A DNA stretch of 40,658 bases, from positions 185,947-226,604 of the forward strand of contig JACKFO010000002.1 in the NCBI GenBank assembly GCA_020632415.1. The letters are read 5' to 3'. The stretch comes from Candidatus Nomurabacteria bacterium (lineage in GTDB: Bacteria; Patescibacteriota; Patescibacteriia; UBA1558; GWA2-36-10). This document shows positions 8,301 to 17,641 of this stretch, piece by piece; position 1 is the first letter of the stretch; every line of letters begins with the position of its first letter. A program made the position numbers and the translations under genes. Below the pieces are notes generated by a model. The model worked only from the letters and a program-made list of their open reading frames with translations, searched no databases and had not been told where the DNA came from.

Positions 8301-8324
8301 TCGCCTAAAATTGGCGATTTTTTT
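8301..8324 (+). terminator. Rho-independent terminator
   Basis: TCGCC (8301-8305) pairs with GGCGA (8313-8317). TTTTTTT follows. Confidence 0.65.
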
Positions 8325-8388
8325 GTTAACTTGTTCTTTTCACAATCAAATAAGTCAAAACAAGAAACAGCAGCGAAAGGATCAGAAA

Positions 8389-9633
8389 ATGAACGCCACT
8401 CGTTCTTTGCACATTCATGATGTGGTTCCCTCTTTTCCTCTGGAAAGTGTCGAGGGTATCGAGGCTTACAATTGGCGGGCTTTGTTGCTCAAGGGCGATA
8501 AAGTAGTTGGCGAGCATCCTTGTTTGTATGATTACCTTACTTGGTTAAAAGAAATCGGCATCGGTAACAATGGTGATGTGTTCCCAGTGCCTAGCAACGC
8601 TCTTTATGAGTGCATTCAAGATGATCCTAATCTTCAGAGGCAATTGCGTCAGTGGATTGGTGCTAGGGGATTGCACGTTCGTTTGTTTGCCCGTGGTTTG
8701 GCTGATCAGCTTTTTTTGGAACATGTTGGCTTGTTGTCTCAGGCAGAAGGCTTCAATCCGCATTTGGATTTGGCTGACCAAGCCAATGATAAGGCTTTTT
8801 TGAGAAAAGTCTTAGATGAGCACTTTGATCCTCGTTGGGCGCCTTTTAATCTGATTGTCAACAGGCAGTCAGAAATCATGTCCGCAATCAAGAAGATCGC
8901 TAAGCATGATTGCGATTTTATCGTGGTTAAGGCGCCACATTTGGCTTCTGGAGAAGGAATGGATTTTTTTCCTCTGGAGCAACAAATGTCTGCGGCTCAT
9001 TTTGCAGCTAAGCTTTGGGCCAAGGGTAATCGGACAATCATCATTGAGGCTGGCTATCGTCACGATAGTTTCAGTACGCAGTGGGAGATTCGCCCTAGTG
9101 AGTTGAGGTTTATCGGCTTTTCTCAACAGATTATTAGCCAGGGCAGAATCTATCAAGGTAGTATTATTTCTTCTGACTCTTTGCTAAATTTGAGCCTAGC
9201 AGAAGCGACTTTGGCGCAAGAGCGTTGTCATGATTTAGCTTTGTGGTACCAGAGCCGCGGATATGTTGGCACCTTTGGTATTGATTTCATTGTTGTGCGT
9301 AGGCCAGGTCAAAAGCACGACGGAGAGCTTTTTTTACTTGAGATCAACGGTCGAGTGACTGGCGCTACTTATCCATTTTCGGTTGGTCGGCAGTTGGCAG
9401 ATCAGGGAATCTTTGAACACGCAATTGCTACTTCTAGTTGTCATCCAAAGAGAGTGGAAGATTGGCGAACTTTAGTCAAAAAACTTGGTTCAAAGATTTT
9501 CAATGGTCGTTATGGCGTGATTCCTTTTTTGCCAAATCTACTGCCCAGCAAAATCGCTTTGATGGCTGTGGATTCCGATGTTCGAGCAGCAAACTTTCGC
9601 TTGGAAGAGGCACAAGAGTTGCTTGGGAACTGA
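8389..9633 (+). CDS. ATP-grasp fold ligase-like protein; possibly a peptide or amino-acid ligase family with a pre-ATP-grasp N-domain
   Basis: ATG at 8389 with AAAGGA 7 nt upstream. The listed TTG start at 8311 lies inside the upstream terminator. ATP-grasp-like C-terminal motifs are present (GTFGIDFIV, FLLEINGRVTGATYP). The 8401-8460 segment counts about 47% G+C by hand. Confidence 0.65.
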   Translation: MNATRSLHIHDVVPSFPLESVEGIEAYNWRALLLKGDKVVGEHPCLYDYLTWLKEIGIGNNGDVFPVPSNALYECIQDDPNLQRQLRQWIGARGLHVRLFARGLADQLFLEHVGLLSQAEGFNPHLDLADQANDKAFLRKVLDEHFDPRWAPFNLIVNRQSEIMSAIKKIAKHDCDFIVVKAPHLASGEGMDFFPLEQQMSAAHFAAKLWAKGNRTIIIEAGYRHDSFSTQWEIRPSELRFIGFSQQIISQGRIYQGSIISSDSLLNLSLAEATLAQERCHDLALWYQSRGYVGTFGIDFIVVRRPGQKHDGELFLLEINGRVTGATYPFSVGRQLADQGIFEHAIATSSCHPKRVEDWRTLVKKLGSKIFNGRYGVIPFLPNLLPSKIALMAVDSDVRAANFRLEEAQELLGN

Positions 9634-13077: not shown

Positions 13078-14403
13078 ATGAAAAACAAAAATAAAAAAAT
13101 GCACGTGGTAGCTGTCGATATGGGCTACGGTCATCAACGAGCAGCTTATCCTTTGCTAGGCTCTTCTTATAACGGCATTGTCAATGCTAATCATTACCAG
13201 GGAATTTCTAAAAAAGAGGAGTTGTCTTGGCAAGAAGGGCGTCGCTGGTATGAAATCATTTCTCGTTTCAAAAAAGTGCCAATTTTAGGTAGCTTGGCCT
13301 TTGCTATTATGGATAATTTTCAGAAGATTGAGCCATTTTATCCGCGTCGTGATTTATCTAAAAATTCTTCTCAACAGAAATACTTTTATCAGAAAGTCAA
13401 AAGAGGTTTAGGTAAAGATTTGATCAAAGATTTAAATCAAAATCCCTTACCTTTGGTGACTTCTTTTTTTGTGCCAGCTTATTTTGCAGAACATAATAAT
13501 TATCAAGGGCCGATTTATTGTATTGTTTGTGATGCTGACATTGCTCGAGCTTGGGCTCCGCCAGAACCAAAAAATAGTCGGATTATTTATTTGGCGCCAA
13601 ACAAAAGAGTAAGGGAGCGTTTATTGCTCTATGGTGTAAAACCAAAAAATATTTTAGTGACCGGTTTTCCATTGCCAAAAGAAAATATCGGAGGTTTACA
13701 GCAAACTATTTTAAAATCAGATTTAAAATCAAGGATCTACAATCTTGATCCCAAAGGAATTTATCGCAAAAAATACGCTAAATTAATCGAAGATTATTTG
13801 TGTCCAGTCAAAGAAATTAAAAAGAACAAACATCCTTTGACGATTACTTTTGCTGTTGGTGGCGCTGGCGCTCAGAGAGAATTAGGAGCTTTGATTTTGG
13901 AAAAATTAAAAAAGCATTTAAAAGCTGACAAAGTAAGATTAAATTTAGTTGCTGGCGTTCGTAATGATGTTTATCTTTTTTTTCAAGAAGTTTTAAAAAA
14001 ATGCGCCCTGACTTCTTCAGATAGCGTTCGAATCATCTATGCTGAAGACAAGCTTAGTTATTTTAGAGAGTTTAACAAAATTTTGAGAAAAACCGATGTT
14101 CTTTGGACCAAGCCAAGTGAGCTGACTTTTTATAGTGGCTTGGGAATTCCGATTATTATGTCTAAGCCAATCGGTTCGCAAGAAGAATACAATCGTAACT
14201 GGTTACTAGCTATTGGCGCTGGCATTGATTCTCAAGATCCAAATTATGTTGATGAATGGCTTTTTGATTGGCTTAATTCTGGCTGGCTGGCCGAGGCAGC
14301 AATGCAAGGCTTTTTGGATGCGCCAAAAATGGGAACTTATCATATTGAAAATATTGTTTTACACAACAAAGTTCAAGAGATTAAAGATATTCAATTGTTA
14401 TAA
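13078..14403 (+). CDS. GT-B fold glycosyltransferase-like protein, resembling the MGDG-synthase/MurG-like family
   Basis: 441 aa with an N-terminal VDMGYGHQRAA motif, a central FAVGGAGAQ motif and a C-terminal PSELTFYSGLGIPII...GSQEEYN pattern typical of GT28-like enzymes. The assignment is made from memory only. Confidence 0.55.
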   Translation: MKNKNKKMHVVAVDMGYGHQRAAYPLLGSSYNGIVNANHYQGISKKEELSWQEGRRWYEIISRFKKVPILGSLAFAIMDNFQKIEPFYPRRDLSKNSSQQKYFYQKVKRGLGKDLIKDLNQNPLPLVTSFFVPAYFAEHNNYQGPIYCIVCDADIARAWAPPEPKNSRIIYLAPNKRVRERLLLYGVKPKNILVTGFPLPKENIGGLQQTILKSDLKSRIYNLDPKGIYRKKYAKLIEDYLCPVKEIKKNKHPLTITFAVGGAGAQRELGALILEKLKKHLKADKVRLNLVAGVRNDVYLFFQEVLKKCALTSSDSVRIIYAEDKLSYFREFNKILRKTDVLWTKPSELTFYSGLGIPIIMSKPIGSQEEYNRNWLLAIGAGIDSQDPNYVDEWLFDWLNSGWLAEAAMQGFLDAPKMGTYHIENIVLHNKVQEIKDIQLL

Positions 14404-15740
14404 TGAAAATCAACACGCTGCATATCAATTTATATAAGAGCATCAAAAAACCATTGCAATTTGAAATTTTGCCGGTTAATATTTTAATTGGTCAAAACAA
14501 TTGTGGTAAAAGTAATATTTTGTATGCAATTGATTATTTGTTTGACGTTAAAGGAGTCAGTGAAATTTTAGATTATCCGGAAGCAGATATTGAAGCAGAA
14601 TTAGAATTTTCTGAAGCAGAGCAAGAAGAATGGGGCTTGCCAGAAAGACGGGCGAGCTTAAGTATCAAAAATGGTGTCAGAAAATTACATTTTCCAAAAA
14701 CAATTGTTAATTATCAAGGAGAATGGCAAAAGATTTTTTCGAAAAATGTTAAGCATTTAAATTATGAAATTTTTAATGACTTTGAACAGATCAAAGAAGA
14801 TTGGCGCAGTTTTCAAAAATACAAAACGCAATTAGCAAAATTTAGAGAAAGTTTAAAAGTCCATTTTCCTAAAGTAGTGACCAAAGAAAATGCTTTGGAC
14901 ATCAATTATGATCATGCGGGAATTAAAGAGGGTCAACGTCGAGCAACAATTGATCATTTGGGCTCTGGTTTTCGGCGAATTTTTACAACTTTGCTTTATA
15001 TTTATCATCCAGAGTATCAAATTGTGATTATTGATGAGCCGGAGACTCATTTGCATCCAGTGATGATCAAAAAGCTTTTGTGGGCCATGCAAAATGCCGC
15101 TAGTGGCCAAGTGCTATTTACTACTCACTCACCATTGTTTATTAATTCAGTGACCTTGCCTCAAGTTTTGCGAGTAGTTAAAGACAGAGTTAGTACAACA
15201 GCCTTTGGTTTGCCGATTAAAAAACAACATTATAGCTACAAGCGTTTAATGCAAGAACTTGATGCTGATAATGTAGAAATGTTTTTTGCAGATAAAGTTG
15301 TTTTGGTTGAGGGAGTTTCTGATCGAATTTTATTAAGAGGTTTAATTGATCGTTTCTATCAAGGAGACAAAGACATTAAAGTTGTTCAGACCCATGGTAA
15401 GGGCAACTTTAATATTTATTTAGATTTGTTAAATATTTTTCAAATTGAATATCTATTGGTAGCAGATAAAGATTTGATCAAATATCAGTTAGATCGAGTT
15501 TTGAATGATCTGCAGATAAAGATTAATTTACGTCAAGATAATCAGAGTATCATCAATGAATTAAAAAATTATCATATTTTTGTTTTTCCTAATGGCTCAA
15601 TTGAAAAACATTACCCACAAAAATATCAGCGAGATGACAAAAAACCGATTAATGCTTTATATGCGGCAACGGCAATTACGCAAATTGATTTTAATTCAAA
15701 TCAGATGAGGCCACTAAAAGAGATTATTAACAGTTTATAA
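14403..15740 (+). CDS. OLD-family nuclease: an ABC-type ATPase fused to a C-terminal Toprim domain
   Basis: Walker A GQNNCGKSN, ABC signature LGSGFRR, Walker B IVIIDEPETHLHP and H-loop TTHSP are all present. Toprim motifs are VVLVEGVSDRILL (Glu) and LLVADKD (DxD). The start overlaps the upstream stop (TAATG). Confidence 0.8.
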   Translation: MKINTLHINLYKSIKKPLQFEILPVNILIGQNNCGKSNILYAIDYLFDVKGVSEILDYPEADIEAELEFSEAEQEEWGLPERRASLSIKNGVRKLHFPKTIVNYQGEWQKIFSKNVKHLNYEIFNDFEQIKEDWRSFQKYKTQLAKFRESLKVHFPKVVTKENALDINYDHAGIKEGQRRATIDHLGSGFRRIFTTLLYIYHPEYQIVIIDEPETHLHPVMIKKLLWAMQNAASGQVLFTTHSPLFINSVTLPQVLRVVKDRVSTTAFGLPIKKQHYSYKRLMQELDADNVEMFFADKVVLVEGVSDRILLRGLIDRFYQGDKDIKVVQTHGKGNFNIYLDLLNIFQIEYLLVADKDLIKYQLDRVLNDLQIKINLRQDNQSIINELKNYHIFVFPNGSIEKHYPQKYQRDDKKPINALYAATAITQIDFNSNQMRPLKEIINSL

Positions 15741-15785
15741 TTTTTTTGTTATAATAATAAAAATTAATTATTAACTTACACAAAT

Positions 15786-15833
15786 ATGGAACCATGTCCA
15801 AATTGCGGTGATGATCCATGCACTTGCGAATAA
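15786..15833 (+). CDS. Candidate 15-aa Cys-rich micropeptide (MEPCPNCGDDPCTCE) with its own promoter and terminator
   Basis: TGtTATAAT sits at 15747-15755 and the ATG at 15786. The peptide has a CPxCG knuckle plus a CxC pair. A strong terminator lies at 15844-15873. The unit could instead be a small RNA. Confidence 0.3.
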   Translation: MEPCPNCGDDPCTCE

Positions 15834-15843
15834 TTTTAAAAAA

Positions 15844-15873
15844 TAGCCCTGGTTAATTCAGGGCTATTTTTTT
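15844..15873. terminator. Bidirectional rho-independent terminator
   Basis: TAGCCCTG (15844-15851) pairs with CAGGGCTA (15859-15866). AAAAAA lies on the left and TTTTTTT on the right. Confidence 0.7.
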
Positions 15874-15887
15874 GTTATTTTTTGGAT

Positions 15888-16274
15888 AAAAAAATGCCGC
15901 CCCAAGGAAGCCGAGGGGCGGCGAGGTTTTGTTGTGTGCGCGGGTTTTGGGCCACGCTACGGAGGGATTTTCTGGCGACGTGTCCTCATGAGAGTCCTCT
16001 GAGGTTTCGGATTGGGCATCGAGAGAGAGGGGTCTCTCGATTTAGGTTGTGCCCGTTGATGTGTCTGTCAGTGGAGGTGCTACTATTGCCTTACCTAAGG
16101 ACAATAGTAGCTAGATGGATCGAGGATGTTCGTGACGAAGGTCGATGTCCCCAATCGTCGAAACGACGGGGTAGTTGACCTTGTGGTCACGGCATCCAGG
16201 AACCAGCATCCGAGTCAAAAACCAATTGATGGTCGGCATGCATGCTCCTTTGGATTCCGTAGTTGAAGAACGAA
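15888..16274 (-). ncRNA. Candidate structured RNA A, about 385 nt and G+C-rich, bounded by a promoter and a terminator. Family not recognised. It may carry a 42-codon ORF at its 5' end.
   Basis: The minus-strand promoter is TTGACA (16304-16309), a 17-nt spacer, then TAATAT (16281-16286). The minus-strand terminator stem is GCCGCCCC/GGGGCGGC (15896-15922) followed by a 7-nt T-run. Internal near-perfect hairpins lie at 15984-16004, 16018-16041, 16080-16110 and 16149-16171. G+C is 55-65% by hand count over 15901-16020. Confidence 0.55.
16111..16239 (-). CDS. Possible 42-aa ORF (MPTINWFLTRMLVPGCRDHKVNYPVVSTIGDIDLRHEHPRSI) inside RNA A
   Basis: aaAGGAGcatgcATG gives 5-nt SD spacing. Third codon positions are G+C-rich. 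The stop codon abuts the 16080-16110 hairpin. No family was recognised. Confidence 0.3.
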   Translation of the reverse strand: MPTINWFLTRMLVPGCRDHKVNYPVVSTIGDIDLRHEHPRSI

Positions 16275-16370
16275 TGTTGTATATTAGCATACTATTCTAA
16301 TCTTGTCAAGCATTTTTAGCGTATTGCGATATTTTTAGCTAACATTAGTTAAATTATGTATTTTTTAAAT

Positions 16371-16620
16371 AAAAAATGAGCTCTCCCAGGGGAAGAGCTC
16401 GTGGCGGGTTGTCGTGGATCTTCGGTTCTTGGTGTTCATCCAAGGTGCCTAGGTCAGCCTAGGTCAGCCTAGACGATGACCCGATGCAAGCATCTTGTGT
16501 GAACAGAACGTCAATCCAATAACCCTTGAACACTGAAAGTGTCCATCGTGTTGCCGAGGCAACTGGCCAACATGTAAGGAGTTGTAGGCCGTCAAAGAAC
16601 GTCCACAGACACGTCCGTGG
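16371..16620 (-). ncRNA. Candidate structured RNA B, about 250 nt and G+C-rich, bounded by a promoter and a terminator. Family not recognised.
   Basis: The minus-strand promoter is TTGACA (16650-16655), a 17-nt spacer, then TAAAGT (16627-16632). The terminator hairpin lies at 16378-16400 and is followed by a T-run on the minus strand. Local hairpins include GUUGC-cucg-GCAAC, GGACAC-uuuca-GUGUUC, CCACGG/CUGUGG and CUUGG/CCAAG. No SD-led ORF is present. Confidence 0.5.
16447..16472. repeat. Tandem repeat with a 10-nt unit, 2.6 copies (gcctaggtca), inside RNA B
   Basis: gcctaggtca gcctaggtca gcctag creates two palindromic CCTAGG sites 10 nt apart. Confidence 0.8.
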
Positions 16621-16626
16621 ATATTT

Positions 16627-16677
16627 ACTTTATAACAAGCTTTTTCTTTTGTCAAGATGCTTAAAAAATTGTATAAT
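16627..16677. promoter_or_regulatory. Back-to-back divergent promoters sharing one -35 region, TTGTCAA
   Basis: Plus strand: TTGTCA (16649-16654), 17 nt, TATAAT (16672-16677), serving the EamA gene. Minus strand: TTGACA (16650-16655), 17 nt, TAAAGT (16627-16632), serving RNA B. Confidence 0.55.
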
Positions 16678-16708
16678 ATAGGCAAGATTATTTTTGAAAA
16701 TAAAAAAT

Positions 16709-17641
16709 ATGGATTGGATCATTATTGCGATTGCAGCTTATTTAATTTTGGCTATCGTTAATTTGGCAGATAAGTTTCTTTTGGAAAATTTAGTACCCAG
16801 TACCAAGACCTATGCCTTCTTAGTCGGAGTACTAGGAGCGATTGTCGTAGTTTTAGCACCTTGGTTTTTAGAGTGGCCGGGTTTCTTTTTACTTTTAGGA
16901 AATTTAATTGTTGGCGCTTTGTTTCCAATTGCTTTATTGCTTTTGTATCACGCTTTAAAAATTGGCGATGCTTCAAAAATTATTCCTTTGATTGGCGGCA
17001 TGATGCCAGTCTTTACTATTTTATTAGCCTTGTTATTTTTGGGTGAAGTTTTTACTGGCCTTCAATGGCTAGCTTTATTCCTCTTGTTGTTAGGTACCGT
17101 GCTTTTAGCTTGGTTGCCAAGTGGGCATAGTTTATGGACCAAAGTTTTGATTTGGTTTGGCTTAGTTAAACAAAAAAACGCCATCGCCATTTTGACTGCT
17201 TTGGGTGCTAGCTTTATTTTTGCTGTATTTTTTGTCGGCACAAAGTATTTGTATCTAGATCAGTCTTTTTTTAGTGCTTTTATTTGGATTAGATTTGGAA
17301 CTTTATTATTTTCTTTGAGCTTGTTAATTCCAAAAAAGATTCGAGCAGAAATTTTTAAAGGTTTAAAGAGATTGAAAAATAAAAAAAGTATTTTGTTTTT
17401 TGGTAATCAAGGATTGGCTGCCGTAGGATTTTTGTTACAAAATTATGCGGTATTTTTAGGATCCGTAGCTTTAGTTTCTGCTCTGCAGGGAGTCCAGTAT
17501 TCATTTTTGTTAATTTTAGGAGGATTAATTTCTGTTTTTTATCCAAAGTTACTGCAGGAGGATATTTCAAAAGGAGTGATTATTCAAAAAATAGTAGCGG
17601 TTTCTTTAATTAGTCTGGGTTTATATTTTATTGTTAGCTAA
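16709..17641 (+). CDS. EamA/DMT-superfamily transporter
   Basis: About 10 TM helices arranged in two EamA-like halves. The ATG at 16709 is preferred over the listed TTG at 16694, but the start is uncertain. Confidence 0.8.
   Translation: MDWIIIAIAAYLILAIVNLADKFLLENLVPSTKTYAFLVGVLGAIVVVLAPWFLEWPGFFLLLGNLIVGALFPIALLLLYHALKIGDASKIIPLIGGMMPVFTILLALLFLGEVFTGLQWLALFLLLLGTVLLAWLPSGHSLWTKVLIWFGLVKQKNAIAILTALGASFIFAVFFVGTKYLYLDQSFFSAFIWIRFGTLLFSLSLLIPKKIRAEIFKGLKRLKNKKSILFFGNQGLAAVGFLLQNYAVFLGSVALVSALQGVQYSFLLILGGLISVFYPKLLQEDISKGVIIQKIVAVSLISLGLYFIVS

Follow-up and report, generated by a model that had tools for sequence, protein, structure and literature searches.

Among described systems, the mRNAs of type I toxins, the dual-function small RNAs (sRNAs) and the structured non-coding RNAs sought in G+C-rich intergenic regions come closest to unit A, a predicted transcript of 387 nucleotides (nt) in a 40,658-nt stretch of DNA (the window) from a bacterium of the Candidate Phyla Radiation (CPR). 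All coordinates refer to the whole window, in which unit A is read on the minus strand; L-numbers denote related loci, and P0121 and P0122 are database proteins of the unit-A peptide family. Type I toxin mRNAs, such as those of hok/sok and of aapA1/isoA1 of Helicobacter pylori, carry a short open reading frame (ORF) on a structured, terminator-ended message of a few hundred nt, and they sit at variable intergenic spots, often as several tandem units and with a narrow taxonomic range. Unit A shares these traits, together with a sequestered Shine-Dalgarno (SD) sequence and long-range pairing of its 5′ and 3′ parts, both of which are predicted; unlike the type I toxins, its peptide has no hydrophobic transmembrane helix, and unlike the type I systems it has neither a cis-antisense promoter, as judged by a scan, nor significant complementarity to the neighbouring unit.

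In the dual-function sRNAs (RNAIII/hld, SgrS/SgrT, SR1/SR1P, AzuCR and VcdRP) an ORF of fewer than 50 codons is joined to a longer structured non-coding part, and the C-rich loops of RNAIII-type RNAs occlude the SD sites of target mRNAs. Unit A is laid out in the same way and has C-rich motifs that could pair with ribosome-binding sites; however, its non-coding part is its least conserved region, whereas the seed regions of the known dual-function sRNAs are, to our knowledge, conserved. The G+C-rich intergenic region (GC-IGR) approach of the Breaker laboratory reportedly uses such regions of A+T-rich genomes to discover structured non-coding RNAs, and unit A, a long G+C-rich intergenic region with strong predicted structure in a 34% G+C genome, looks like a candidate of this kind. 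Unlike in the GC-IGR finds, the source of its signal is the mRNA of a microprotein, together with neighbouring units, and not a conserved non-coding RNA, and unit A belongs to no Rfam family.

Unit A is a new, narrowly distributed microprotein family on a structured mRNA, and not a new RNA class. On balance it is probably an accessory, independently transcribed microgene whose folded mRNA encodes a 42-residue protein in a Komeilibacteria-like CPR bacterium, and our best guess is that this microgene is translation-gated. Its predicted parts, and the candidate operator next to it, are the following:

15888-16274, minus strand: unit A, predicted transcript of 387 nt, its 5′ end placed from the -10 box and its 3′ end from the terminator
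16281-16309, minus strand: sigma-70-type promoter TTGACA-17-TAATAT with a TG extension, from the promoter scan
16245-16248, minus strand: core GGAG of the SD sequence (in AAAGGAG), 5 nt upstream of the ATG, from sequence and fold
16111-16239, minus strand: ORF1, 42 codons and a stop, MPTINWFLTRMLVPGCRDHKVNYPVVSTIGDIDLRHEHPRSI, conserved microprotein (SD-led, with homologs and a substitution pattern)
16125-16197, minus strand: long hairpin inside ORF1 in the predicted fold, R-H-E-H-P codons paired with P-G-C-R-D codons
16080-16112, minus strand: near-perfect hairpin of 14 base pairs (bp) directly after the ORF1 stop codon, present in the folds, not conserved in the homologs
16016-16056, minus strand: hairpin GGGC...AUCGAGAGA/UCUCUCGAU...GCCC in the 3′ untranslated region (UTR), from RNAalifold, weakly supported by three sequences
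15957-15989, minus strand: MRTRRQKIPP-stop, possibly a second mini-ORF, whose ATG has GAGGA 5 nt ahead of it (low confidence)
15888-15922, minus strand: intrinsic terminator with an 8-bp G+C stem GCCGCCCC...GGGGCGGC, then A, then seven T, from sequence, scan and fold
16336-16351, no strand assigned: near-palindrome of 16 bp, TAGCTAACATTAGTTA, about 30 nt upstream of the -35 box, candidate operator of a dimeric regulator

The boundaries of the unit are marked by composition as well as by signals. Unit A is 53% G+C as against 34% for the whole window, and successive 50-nt windows across 15900-16249 give 64%, 60%, 52%, 50%, 48%, 58% and 50%, so that the local jump described in the first-pass annotation holds (48-64%), but the flanking spacers, estimated there at about 10% G+C, are computed at 20-26%. 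The transcribed strand is C-rich (C 32%, G 21%). The promoter and the terminator named in that annotation also stand: the scan finds the former at 16309-16281 with its TG extension, and the latter (15922-15888, ending in seven T) can be read directly from the sequence, although only its inner part is flagged by the scan because the loop is long. In alignments the homologous units introduced below keep the -35 box, parts of the spacer and the extended -10, a closely similar promoter (CTTGACAA...ATAGTATGCTAATAT) lies ahead of all four, and the left arm of the terminator, GCCGC, and its position are common to the window and the homologs. From these signals we infer that unit A is transcribed, and any cellular role is put forward in the same spirit. 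The suggestion that the island might be an assembly chimera falls away, since three separate Logan assemblies (SRR12358675, SRR12358676 and SRR14234111) contain unit A 100% identical, across both G+C boundaries or to the contig end, without a difference among them.

The evidence that unit A is a gene lies in ORF1, which occupies the 5′ third of the predicted mRNA. The longest minus-strand ORF of the unit has 59 amino acids (16111-16290), in line with the earlier statement that none reaches 60, and the SD-led form begins at the ATG at 16239; this is the 42-codon ORF (16239-16111) that had already been singled out, and it proved to be conserved in four homologs, the copy in the window included. 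The first homolog was a 61-amino-acid ORF with ...INWFLTR...IDLRYEHPD in an expanded gap of locus L018; a six-frame motif scan led to the second, in L017, and a profile search of 5.8 billion proteins confirmed the latter as P0121 and added P0122, the member in L101. The peptides outside the window are:

L018/L019: MINWFLTRLFRPTSGCSTHLPGPRPNSKPRIDLRYEHPD
L017/L102-L105 (P0121, identical on four contigs from four samples): MIMLMINWLLTRLFCLISLPDTQSGAQYPGNLPRIDLRYEHPN
L101 (P0122): MINWFLTRLFRLASGVRSQAEGRLVIDATENIDLAYEHPD

All four homologous units lie inside the same gap, between a gene for an OLD-family protein and an EamA-family transporter gene (OLD|EamA gap), and are antisense to these flanking genes. 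A GGAG or GGAGG is found 5-9 nt before the ATG in 4/4, the ORF has 39-43 codons with start and stop kept in 4/4, and the motifs INW-LTR and IDL-EHP are invariant across the 4/4 peptides. The family thus has a conserved N-terminal INWFLTR, a variable middle and a conserved C-terminal IDLR(H/Y)EHP, and the spacing between the motifs (28-30 residues) differs by whole codons only, i.e., the indels are in frame. Within the two conserved blocks (18 codons, four sequences), the variable sites are distributed 9/2/15 over codon positions 1/2/3, with most first-position changes falling in Leu and Arg synonyms, and 11 of the 17 varying codon columns are purely synonymous. The synonymous sets comprise ATC/ATT, AAT/AAC, TTG/CTG, ACT/ACC and CGG/AGG/AGA, and also GAC/GAT, CTT/TTG/CTC, GAA/GAG, CAT/CAC and CCT/CCG. 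The synonymous pattern, the in-frame indels and the preserved SD-led ORF together argue that ORF1 is a genuine microprotein gene.

The family is easily missed. Only two members are called among the 5.8 billion database clusters, both as “hypothetical protein”, and an exhaustive HMMER profile pass over 1.84 billion representative proteins returned the two known members, three spurious matches and nothing further. Searches of units A and B (B being the next unit upstream, see below) with blastn and nhmmer against 92 related loci (879 kb) gave no match, because the real homologs are too diverged for such methods and were found only through the peptide motif; the search for homologs in related genomes that had been proposed thus failed at the nucleotide level and succeeded, in three lineages, at the level of the peptide.

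The surroundings of the gap define how unit A is distributed. Judged by the sequences of the flanking proteins, the genome belongs to Patescibacteria and is close to Candidatus Komeilibacteria; the neighbours are:

14403-15740, plus strand: OLD-family ATPase-TOPRIM protein, left neighbour, preceded by a DUF6938 protein
16694-17641, plus strand: EamA-family transporter, right neighbour, followed by a glycoside-hydrolase-like (GH) gene

The order DUF6938-OLD-EamA-GH is kept across the clade, in relatives down to 41-47% OLD identity, and behaves here as a core syntenic block. The distance from the OLD stop to the EamA start is 0-37 nt in most relatives, about 955 nt in the window and 450-1540 nt in a few other lineages. 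Unit A is absent from the closest relatives, whose EamA proteins are 80-84% identical (L002, L094-L098 and, at about 80%, L016), and the homologous units occupy the same gap in three other Komeilibacteria-like lineages (L018/L019, L017/L102-L105 and L101). With the nearest relatives lacking the unit and the flanking genes abutting in most of them, unit A is accessory, and the housekeeping RNA that had been offered as one interpretation does not fit; the locus is an insertion hotspot that is occupied patchily. The other interpretation, an RNA acquired horizontally and betrayed by its G+C content, fares no better, since all four homologous units share a G+C-rich, C>G make-up (46-54% G+C as against 34-37% for their loci, with C 28-32% and G 18-22%), which is therefore a family trait and not the mark of a foreign donor. 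A blastn search of 15860-16680 against phage and plasmid collections gave no match, and translated pseudo-ORFs of units A and B, used as multi-pattern probes, hit nothing in viral or metagenome contigs. The idea of a decayed larger gene was also considered; it is unlikely, as translation of the island in six frames gives ORF fragments that match nothing in Pfam.

The predicted mRNA is strongly folded. Its energy is -146.4 kcal/mol, whereas 100 dinucleotide-shuffled controls lie at -100.2 +/- 5.7 (z = -8.07). For the homologous transcripts z is -4.96, -4.76 and -8.31, and for the plus strand of unit A it is -5.4. The stems named in the first-pass annotation are all present in both the minimum-free-energy and the centroid folds (16018-16041, 16080-16112, 16149-16171 nested in 16125-16197, and 15985-16006). 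In the predicted structure the GGAG at 16245-16248 is paired with UUCC at 16199-16202 (pairing probability P = 1.00), and the SD is likewise predicted to be paired in the three homologs (P = 0.73-0.99). The E-H-P codons are predicted to pair with an ORF segment about 40-65 nt upstream in 4/4 homologs (P = 0.73-0.99), and this pairing exceeds that of motif-fixed shuffles in 3/4, the fractions of shuffles at or above the observed value being 0.10, 0, 0 and 0.01. The partners follow the codons, GAA-CAU in the window and L018 and GAG-CAC in L101 and L103 being matched by AUGUUC-type and GUGCUC/GGGGUUC-type segments, respectively, and since the E-H-P codons pair with the middle of the ORF, this “variable” middle may be shaped in part by the need to pair. 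The predicted pairing thus suggests that the unit-A mRNA is under structural as well as coding constraint. A long-range helix joining the 5′ and 3′ parts (16256-16261 with 15960-15965) is predicted as well, and the same closure is predicted in L101 and L103 (3/4 homologs). The 3′ UTR is the least conserved part, with 32-62% identity and a length of 101-284 nt; the terminator aside, the hairpin at 16016-16056 is its sole helix in a common position in the window, L018 and L101, where the sequences differ, and RNAalifold on the three 3′ UTRs yields -17.4 kcal/mol and no covariation bonus. The claim of a novel structured RNA is therefore partly sustained: the unit is self-contained, strongly folded and not in Rfam, but with its conserved ORF it is not primarily non-coding.

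A microgene of this kind could work as follows. The near-consensus promoter would drive an mRNA of about 387 nt and may be regulated, with the 16-bp palindrome as a candidate operator; tight folding would have been selected for, giving a compact and stable message. The fold would hide the SD, and the 3′ end of the ORF would be clamped in the long hairpin by its partner in the “variable” middle. Translation gating, which we infer from this predicted pairing, would mean that translation is probably held low until the fold opens, and that the microprotein is made only once it does so, whether through processing, with the help of a trans factor or during transcription. The variable 3′ UTR and the strong terminator might serve mainly stability or gating. 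On this proposal, unit A is one of the tiny transcription units, oriented antisense, that in some lineages have built up as a hypervariable array of cassettes between the OLD and EamA genes.

The palindrome conforms to a motif, TTTT[AG]GCTAA[CT]ATTAG, that also occurs ahead of the L018 and L101 homologs of unit A, next to the unit of L004/L014 and elsewhere in related CPR genomes. In the form TTTT[AG]GCTAA[CT]ATTAG[CT] it was seen near promoters in several Komeilibacteria-like loci, namely L018 (~7891), L101 (~3270), L004 (~9961), L014 (~9962), L009, L010, L021 and L022, and it could be the operator of a clade-wide regulator.

Several observations weigh against the translation-gated microgene. 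The homologs number only four distinct sequences, and the coding test draws on two short blocks, between which the protein is poorly conserved; gene callers passed over ORF1 in the genome from which the window comes. AlphaFold yields no more than an N-terminal helix of 10 residues at low confidence (predicted local distance difference test, pLDDT, 58.7), and neither the neighbours nor protein families, with no match in Pfam or NCBIfam, indicate a function. As regards gating, the SD pairing partners differ between homologs, so that it could be a by-product of G+C-rich sequence. An RNA with two functions, i.e., a microprotein and a C-rich 3′ domain (CACCUCC, CCCUCC and CCUC, all anti-SD-like) that occludes the SD sites of target mRNAs, would draw on some of the same facts, and such RNAs are an established class (reviews PMC12310071 and PMC12612679). 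About 220 nt of structured non-coding sequence follow the short 5′ ORF, all family members are C-rich and G-poor, and the centroid fold leaves CACCUCC at about 16072-16078 single-stranded, with CACCU(U/C) recurring in the 3′ UTRs of L018 and L103. We nevertheless regard this as unlikely, because the supposed regulatory domain is precisely the poorly conserved 3′ UTR, for which RNAalifold gave no covariation bonus, and because the ACACCUUCC motif of L103 is predicted to pair with the unit's own SD, which points to gating in cis rather than regulation in trans. That unit A is a purely non-coding structured RNA, along the lines of the novel RNA proposed in the first-pass annotation, and that its ORF is incidental, is very unlikely. 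The very strong fold z-scores, some compensatory substitutions in the helix that covers the E-H-P codons and the lack of a protein-family match speak for it, but it would leave unexplained the third-position pattern, the in-frame indels and the SD, start and stop kept in 4/4 homologs; moreover, the structure is weakly conserved outside the ORF, the nearest relatives do without the unit, contrary to a housekeeping role, and there is no Rfam match. In Rfam 15, whose families include RNase P, SRP, 6S and tmRNA as well as riboswitches and large non-coding RNAs, the whole window gave zero matches at the gathering threshold, and ARAGORN found no tRNA or tmRNA, which agrees with the earlier failure to see signs of RNase P, tmRNA or SRP RNA; a permissive Rfam scan of 15500-17500 (E<=10) returned only terminator-shaped chance matches of <=27 bits at 15770-15939.

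It is quite unlikely that unit A belongs to a module like the type I toxin-antitoxin systems, in which ORF1 would be toxic and its folded mRNA silenced by a small RNA, the antitoxin candidate being unit B. The small ORF, the predicted SD occlusion and the 5′-3′ long-range helix resemble the hok and aapA1 mRNAs (PMC5416894, PMC6733600), the intergenic site is hypervariable and multi-copy with a narrow lineage range, and an ORF-less structured unit with CUCC(UU) near a hairpin loop lies beside unit A in the window, L018 and L103. Nevertheless, the peptides are not hydrophobic, their best 15-residue Kyte-Doolittle window reaching 0.2-1.8 as against about 2.7 for Fst and TisB, no promoter on the opposite (plus) strand was found by the scan inside unit A, and the L101 copy has no partner unit. 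The duplex energy between the 5′ region of A and the adjacent unit is also no better than that of shuffles in three genomes (fraction at or below the observed value 0.44-0.50). A regulatory leader or arrest peptide, in which the C-terminal EHP beside the stop codon stalls the ribosome and thereby controls something downstream, is hardly probable at all. It would make sense of the distance of 28-30 residues between the two conserved motifs, which is roughly the length of the exit tunnel, of the variable stretch between them, and of the Pro-Pro-stop mini-ORFs that recur in the cassettes; however, there is nothing downstream to regulate, as the strong terminator is succeeded by another terminator, a bidirectional one, and by a convergent gene. 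The microgene with a translation-gated mRNA therefore remains the best guess.

Unit A has company in the gap. Its neighbours there are:

16370-16622, minus strand: unit B, G+C-rich, about 253 nt from promoter to terminator, upstream of A on the same strand
16627-16655, minus strand: unit B promoter TTGACA-17-TAAAGT (scan)
16378-16400, minus strand: unit B terminator (scan)
15786-15833, plus strand: Cys-rich microprotein ORF, MEPCPNCGDDPCTCE, directly after the OLD gene
15727-15755, plus strand: promoter of the Cys-rich ORF
15838-15872: bidirectional terminator after the Cys-rich ORF

The fold of unit B gives z = -6.1; the unit lacks an SD-led ORF, no homolog turned up in any of the collections searched, and unit B makes a better candidate than unit A for a true small non-coding RNA. 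It carries an anti-SD-like CUCCUU in a hairpin loop and a 2.4-copy tandem repeat, AGGCTGACCT, at 16447-16470. A relationship between units A and B was considered and rejected, as they are neither similar nor complementary to each other. The unit-B promoter overlaps, back-to-back, an EamA promoter (TTGTCA-17-TATAAT at 16649-16677, plus strand), the two sharing a TTGTCAA/TTGACAA core, and the cassette arrays of L018, L020/L108 and L004 end in the same way; in an array, a dedicated EamA promoter would therefore take the place of read-through from OLD.

The Cys-rich microprotein has 15-17 residues and is conserved in six lineages, other versions being MEPCADCGNDPCSCE (L094), METCPNCGNDPCTCGA (L020/L108), MEPCPNCGNEPCTCGA (L101), MNEPCPSCGNEPCTCGQ (L103) and MELCPECGNDPCTCEE (L106). 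By its conservation it is probably a real four-cysteine microprotein, with a question mark over metal binding. A role of this mini-ORF as an EamA attenuator was rejected, since in L106 it lies between OLD and EamA, within the operon and with no terminator. A shared 5′ box, GTTCaTTGA, which seemed conserved by eye, was dropped as well, as its 45 occurrences in 1.9 Mb are not significant.

Corresponding gaps in other lineages (L018 7336-8895, L103 2026-3229, L004/L014 9499-10015, L020 7330-7815 and L101 3131-3864) hold 1-5 tandem minus-strand cassettes with TTGACA promoters and strong terminators: five units in L018, four in L103 and one each in L004, L014 and L020/L108. The cassettes are 130-450 nt long, G+C- and C-rich, strongly folded and antisense to the flanking operon, each with its own near-consensus promoter and strong terminator. 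Most bear a microprotein ORF, of the INWFLTR...EHP or the MKRLLIPPQ family, or a Pro-Pro-stop mini-ORF. The second family, MKRLLIPPQ..., has 42 amino acids and is conserved at the protein level between L018 and L020/L108, with in-frame indels. Shorter peptides of the gap, MKRLNPPIIT... and MRKLPLIIT..., were also seen, as were the Pro-Pro-stop mini-ORFs MPAH(M/T)HPP*, MPHTQIPP* and MRHLYPP* (the asterisk denoting the stop). Two of these belong to other hotspot cassettes: MRHLYPP-stop and MPAH(M/T)HPP-stop, the latter differing synonymously between L004 and L014. The third concerns the possible second mini-ORF in the 3′ part of unit A, at whose aligned site L101 has an SD-led MPHTQIPP-stop and L018 has MPHRKIAP..., one C out of frame; the comparison is suggestive but thin.

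Further observations concern the rest of the window. The DUF6938 and OLD pair (13078-15740, plus strand) has a PADLOC match to “Old” at 3e-41; judged by its synteny, this pair behaves here as a core syntenic pair and not as a mobile defence island. Another G+C-rich island (~46%), on the minus strand at 570-1330, is equipped with a TTGACA promoter (near 1300) and, around 570-600, with a hairpin resembling a terminator; its minus-strand ORFs at 946-1215 (89 amino acids, membrane-like) and 623-994 (123 amino acids) have no Pfam match. A possible foreign gene is the ORF of 440 amino acids at 8311-9633 (plus strand): its G+C content, 44-46%, is far higher than the genome average, and its sole match, to ATP-grasp, is weak.

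A wider reading, which we offer tentatively and hold to be rather doubtful, is that the OLD|EamA gap of Komeilibacteria-like CPR bacteria is a hotspot that collects an undescribed class of autonomous “micro-cassettes”, with unit A as one of a repertoire in fast turnover. If so, candidate roles would be those of toxin-like, regulatory (dual-function RNA) or host-interaction peptides, and co-evolution of the coding sequence with the mRNA structure would proceed one codon at a time. A search of the literature on small proteins and non-coding RNAs of CPR bacteria or Patescibacteria returned nothing. Unit A is also a caution for RNA discovery, as a G+C-rich, hairpin-dense island, the classic signature of a non-coding RNA, is here an unannotated microprotein gene. 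The genomes of CPR bacteria are small, yet this locus contains a hypervariable array of tiny genes, which makes it a tractable place for questions about accessory gene content and about the co-evolution of ORFs with the folding of their mRNAs.

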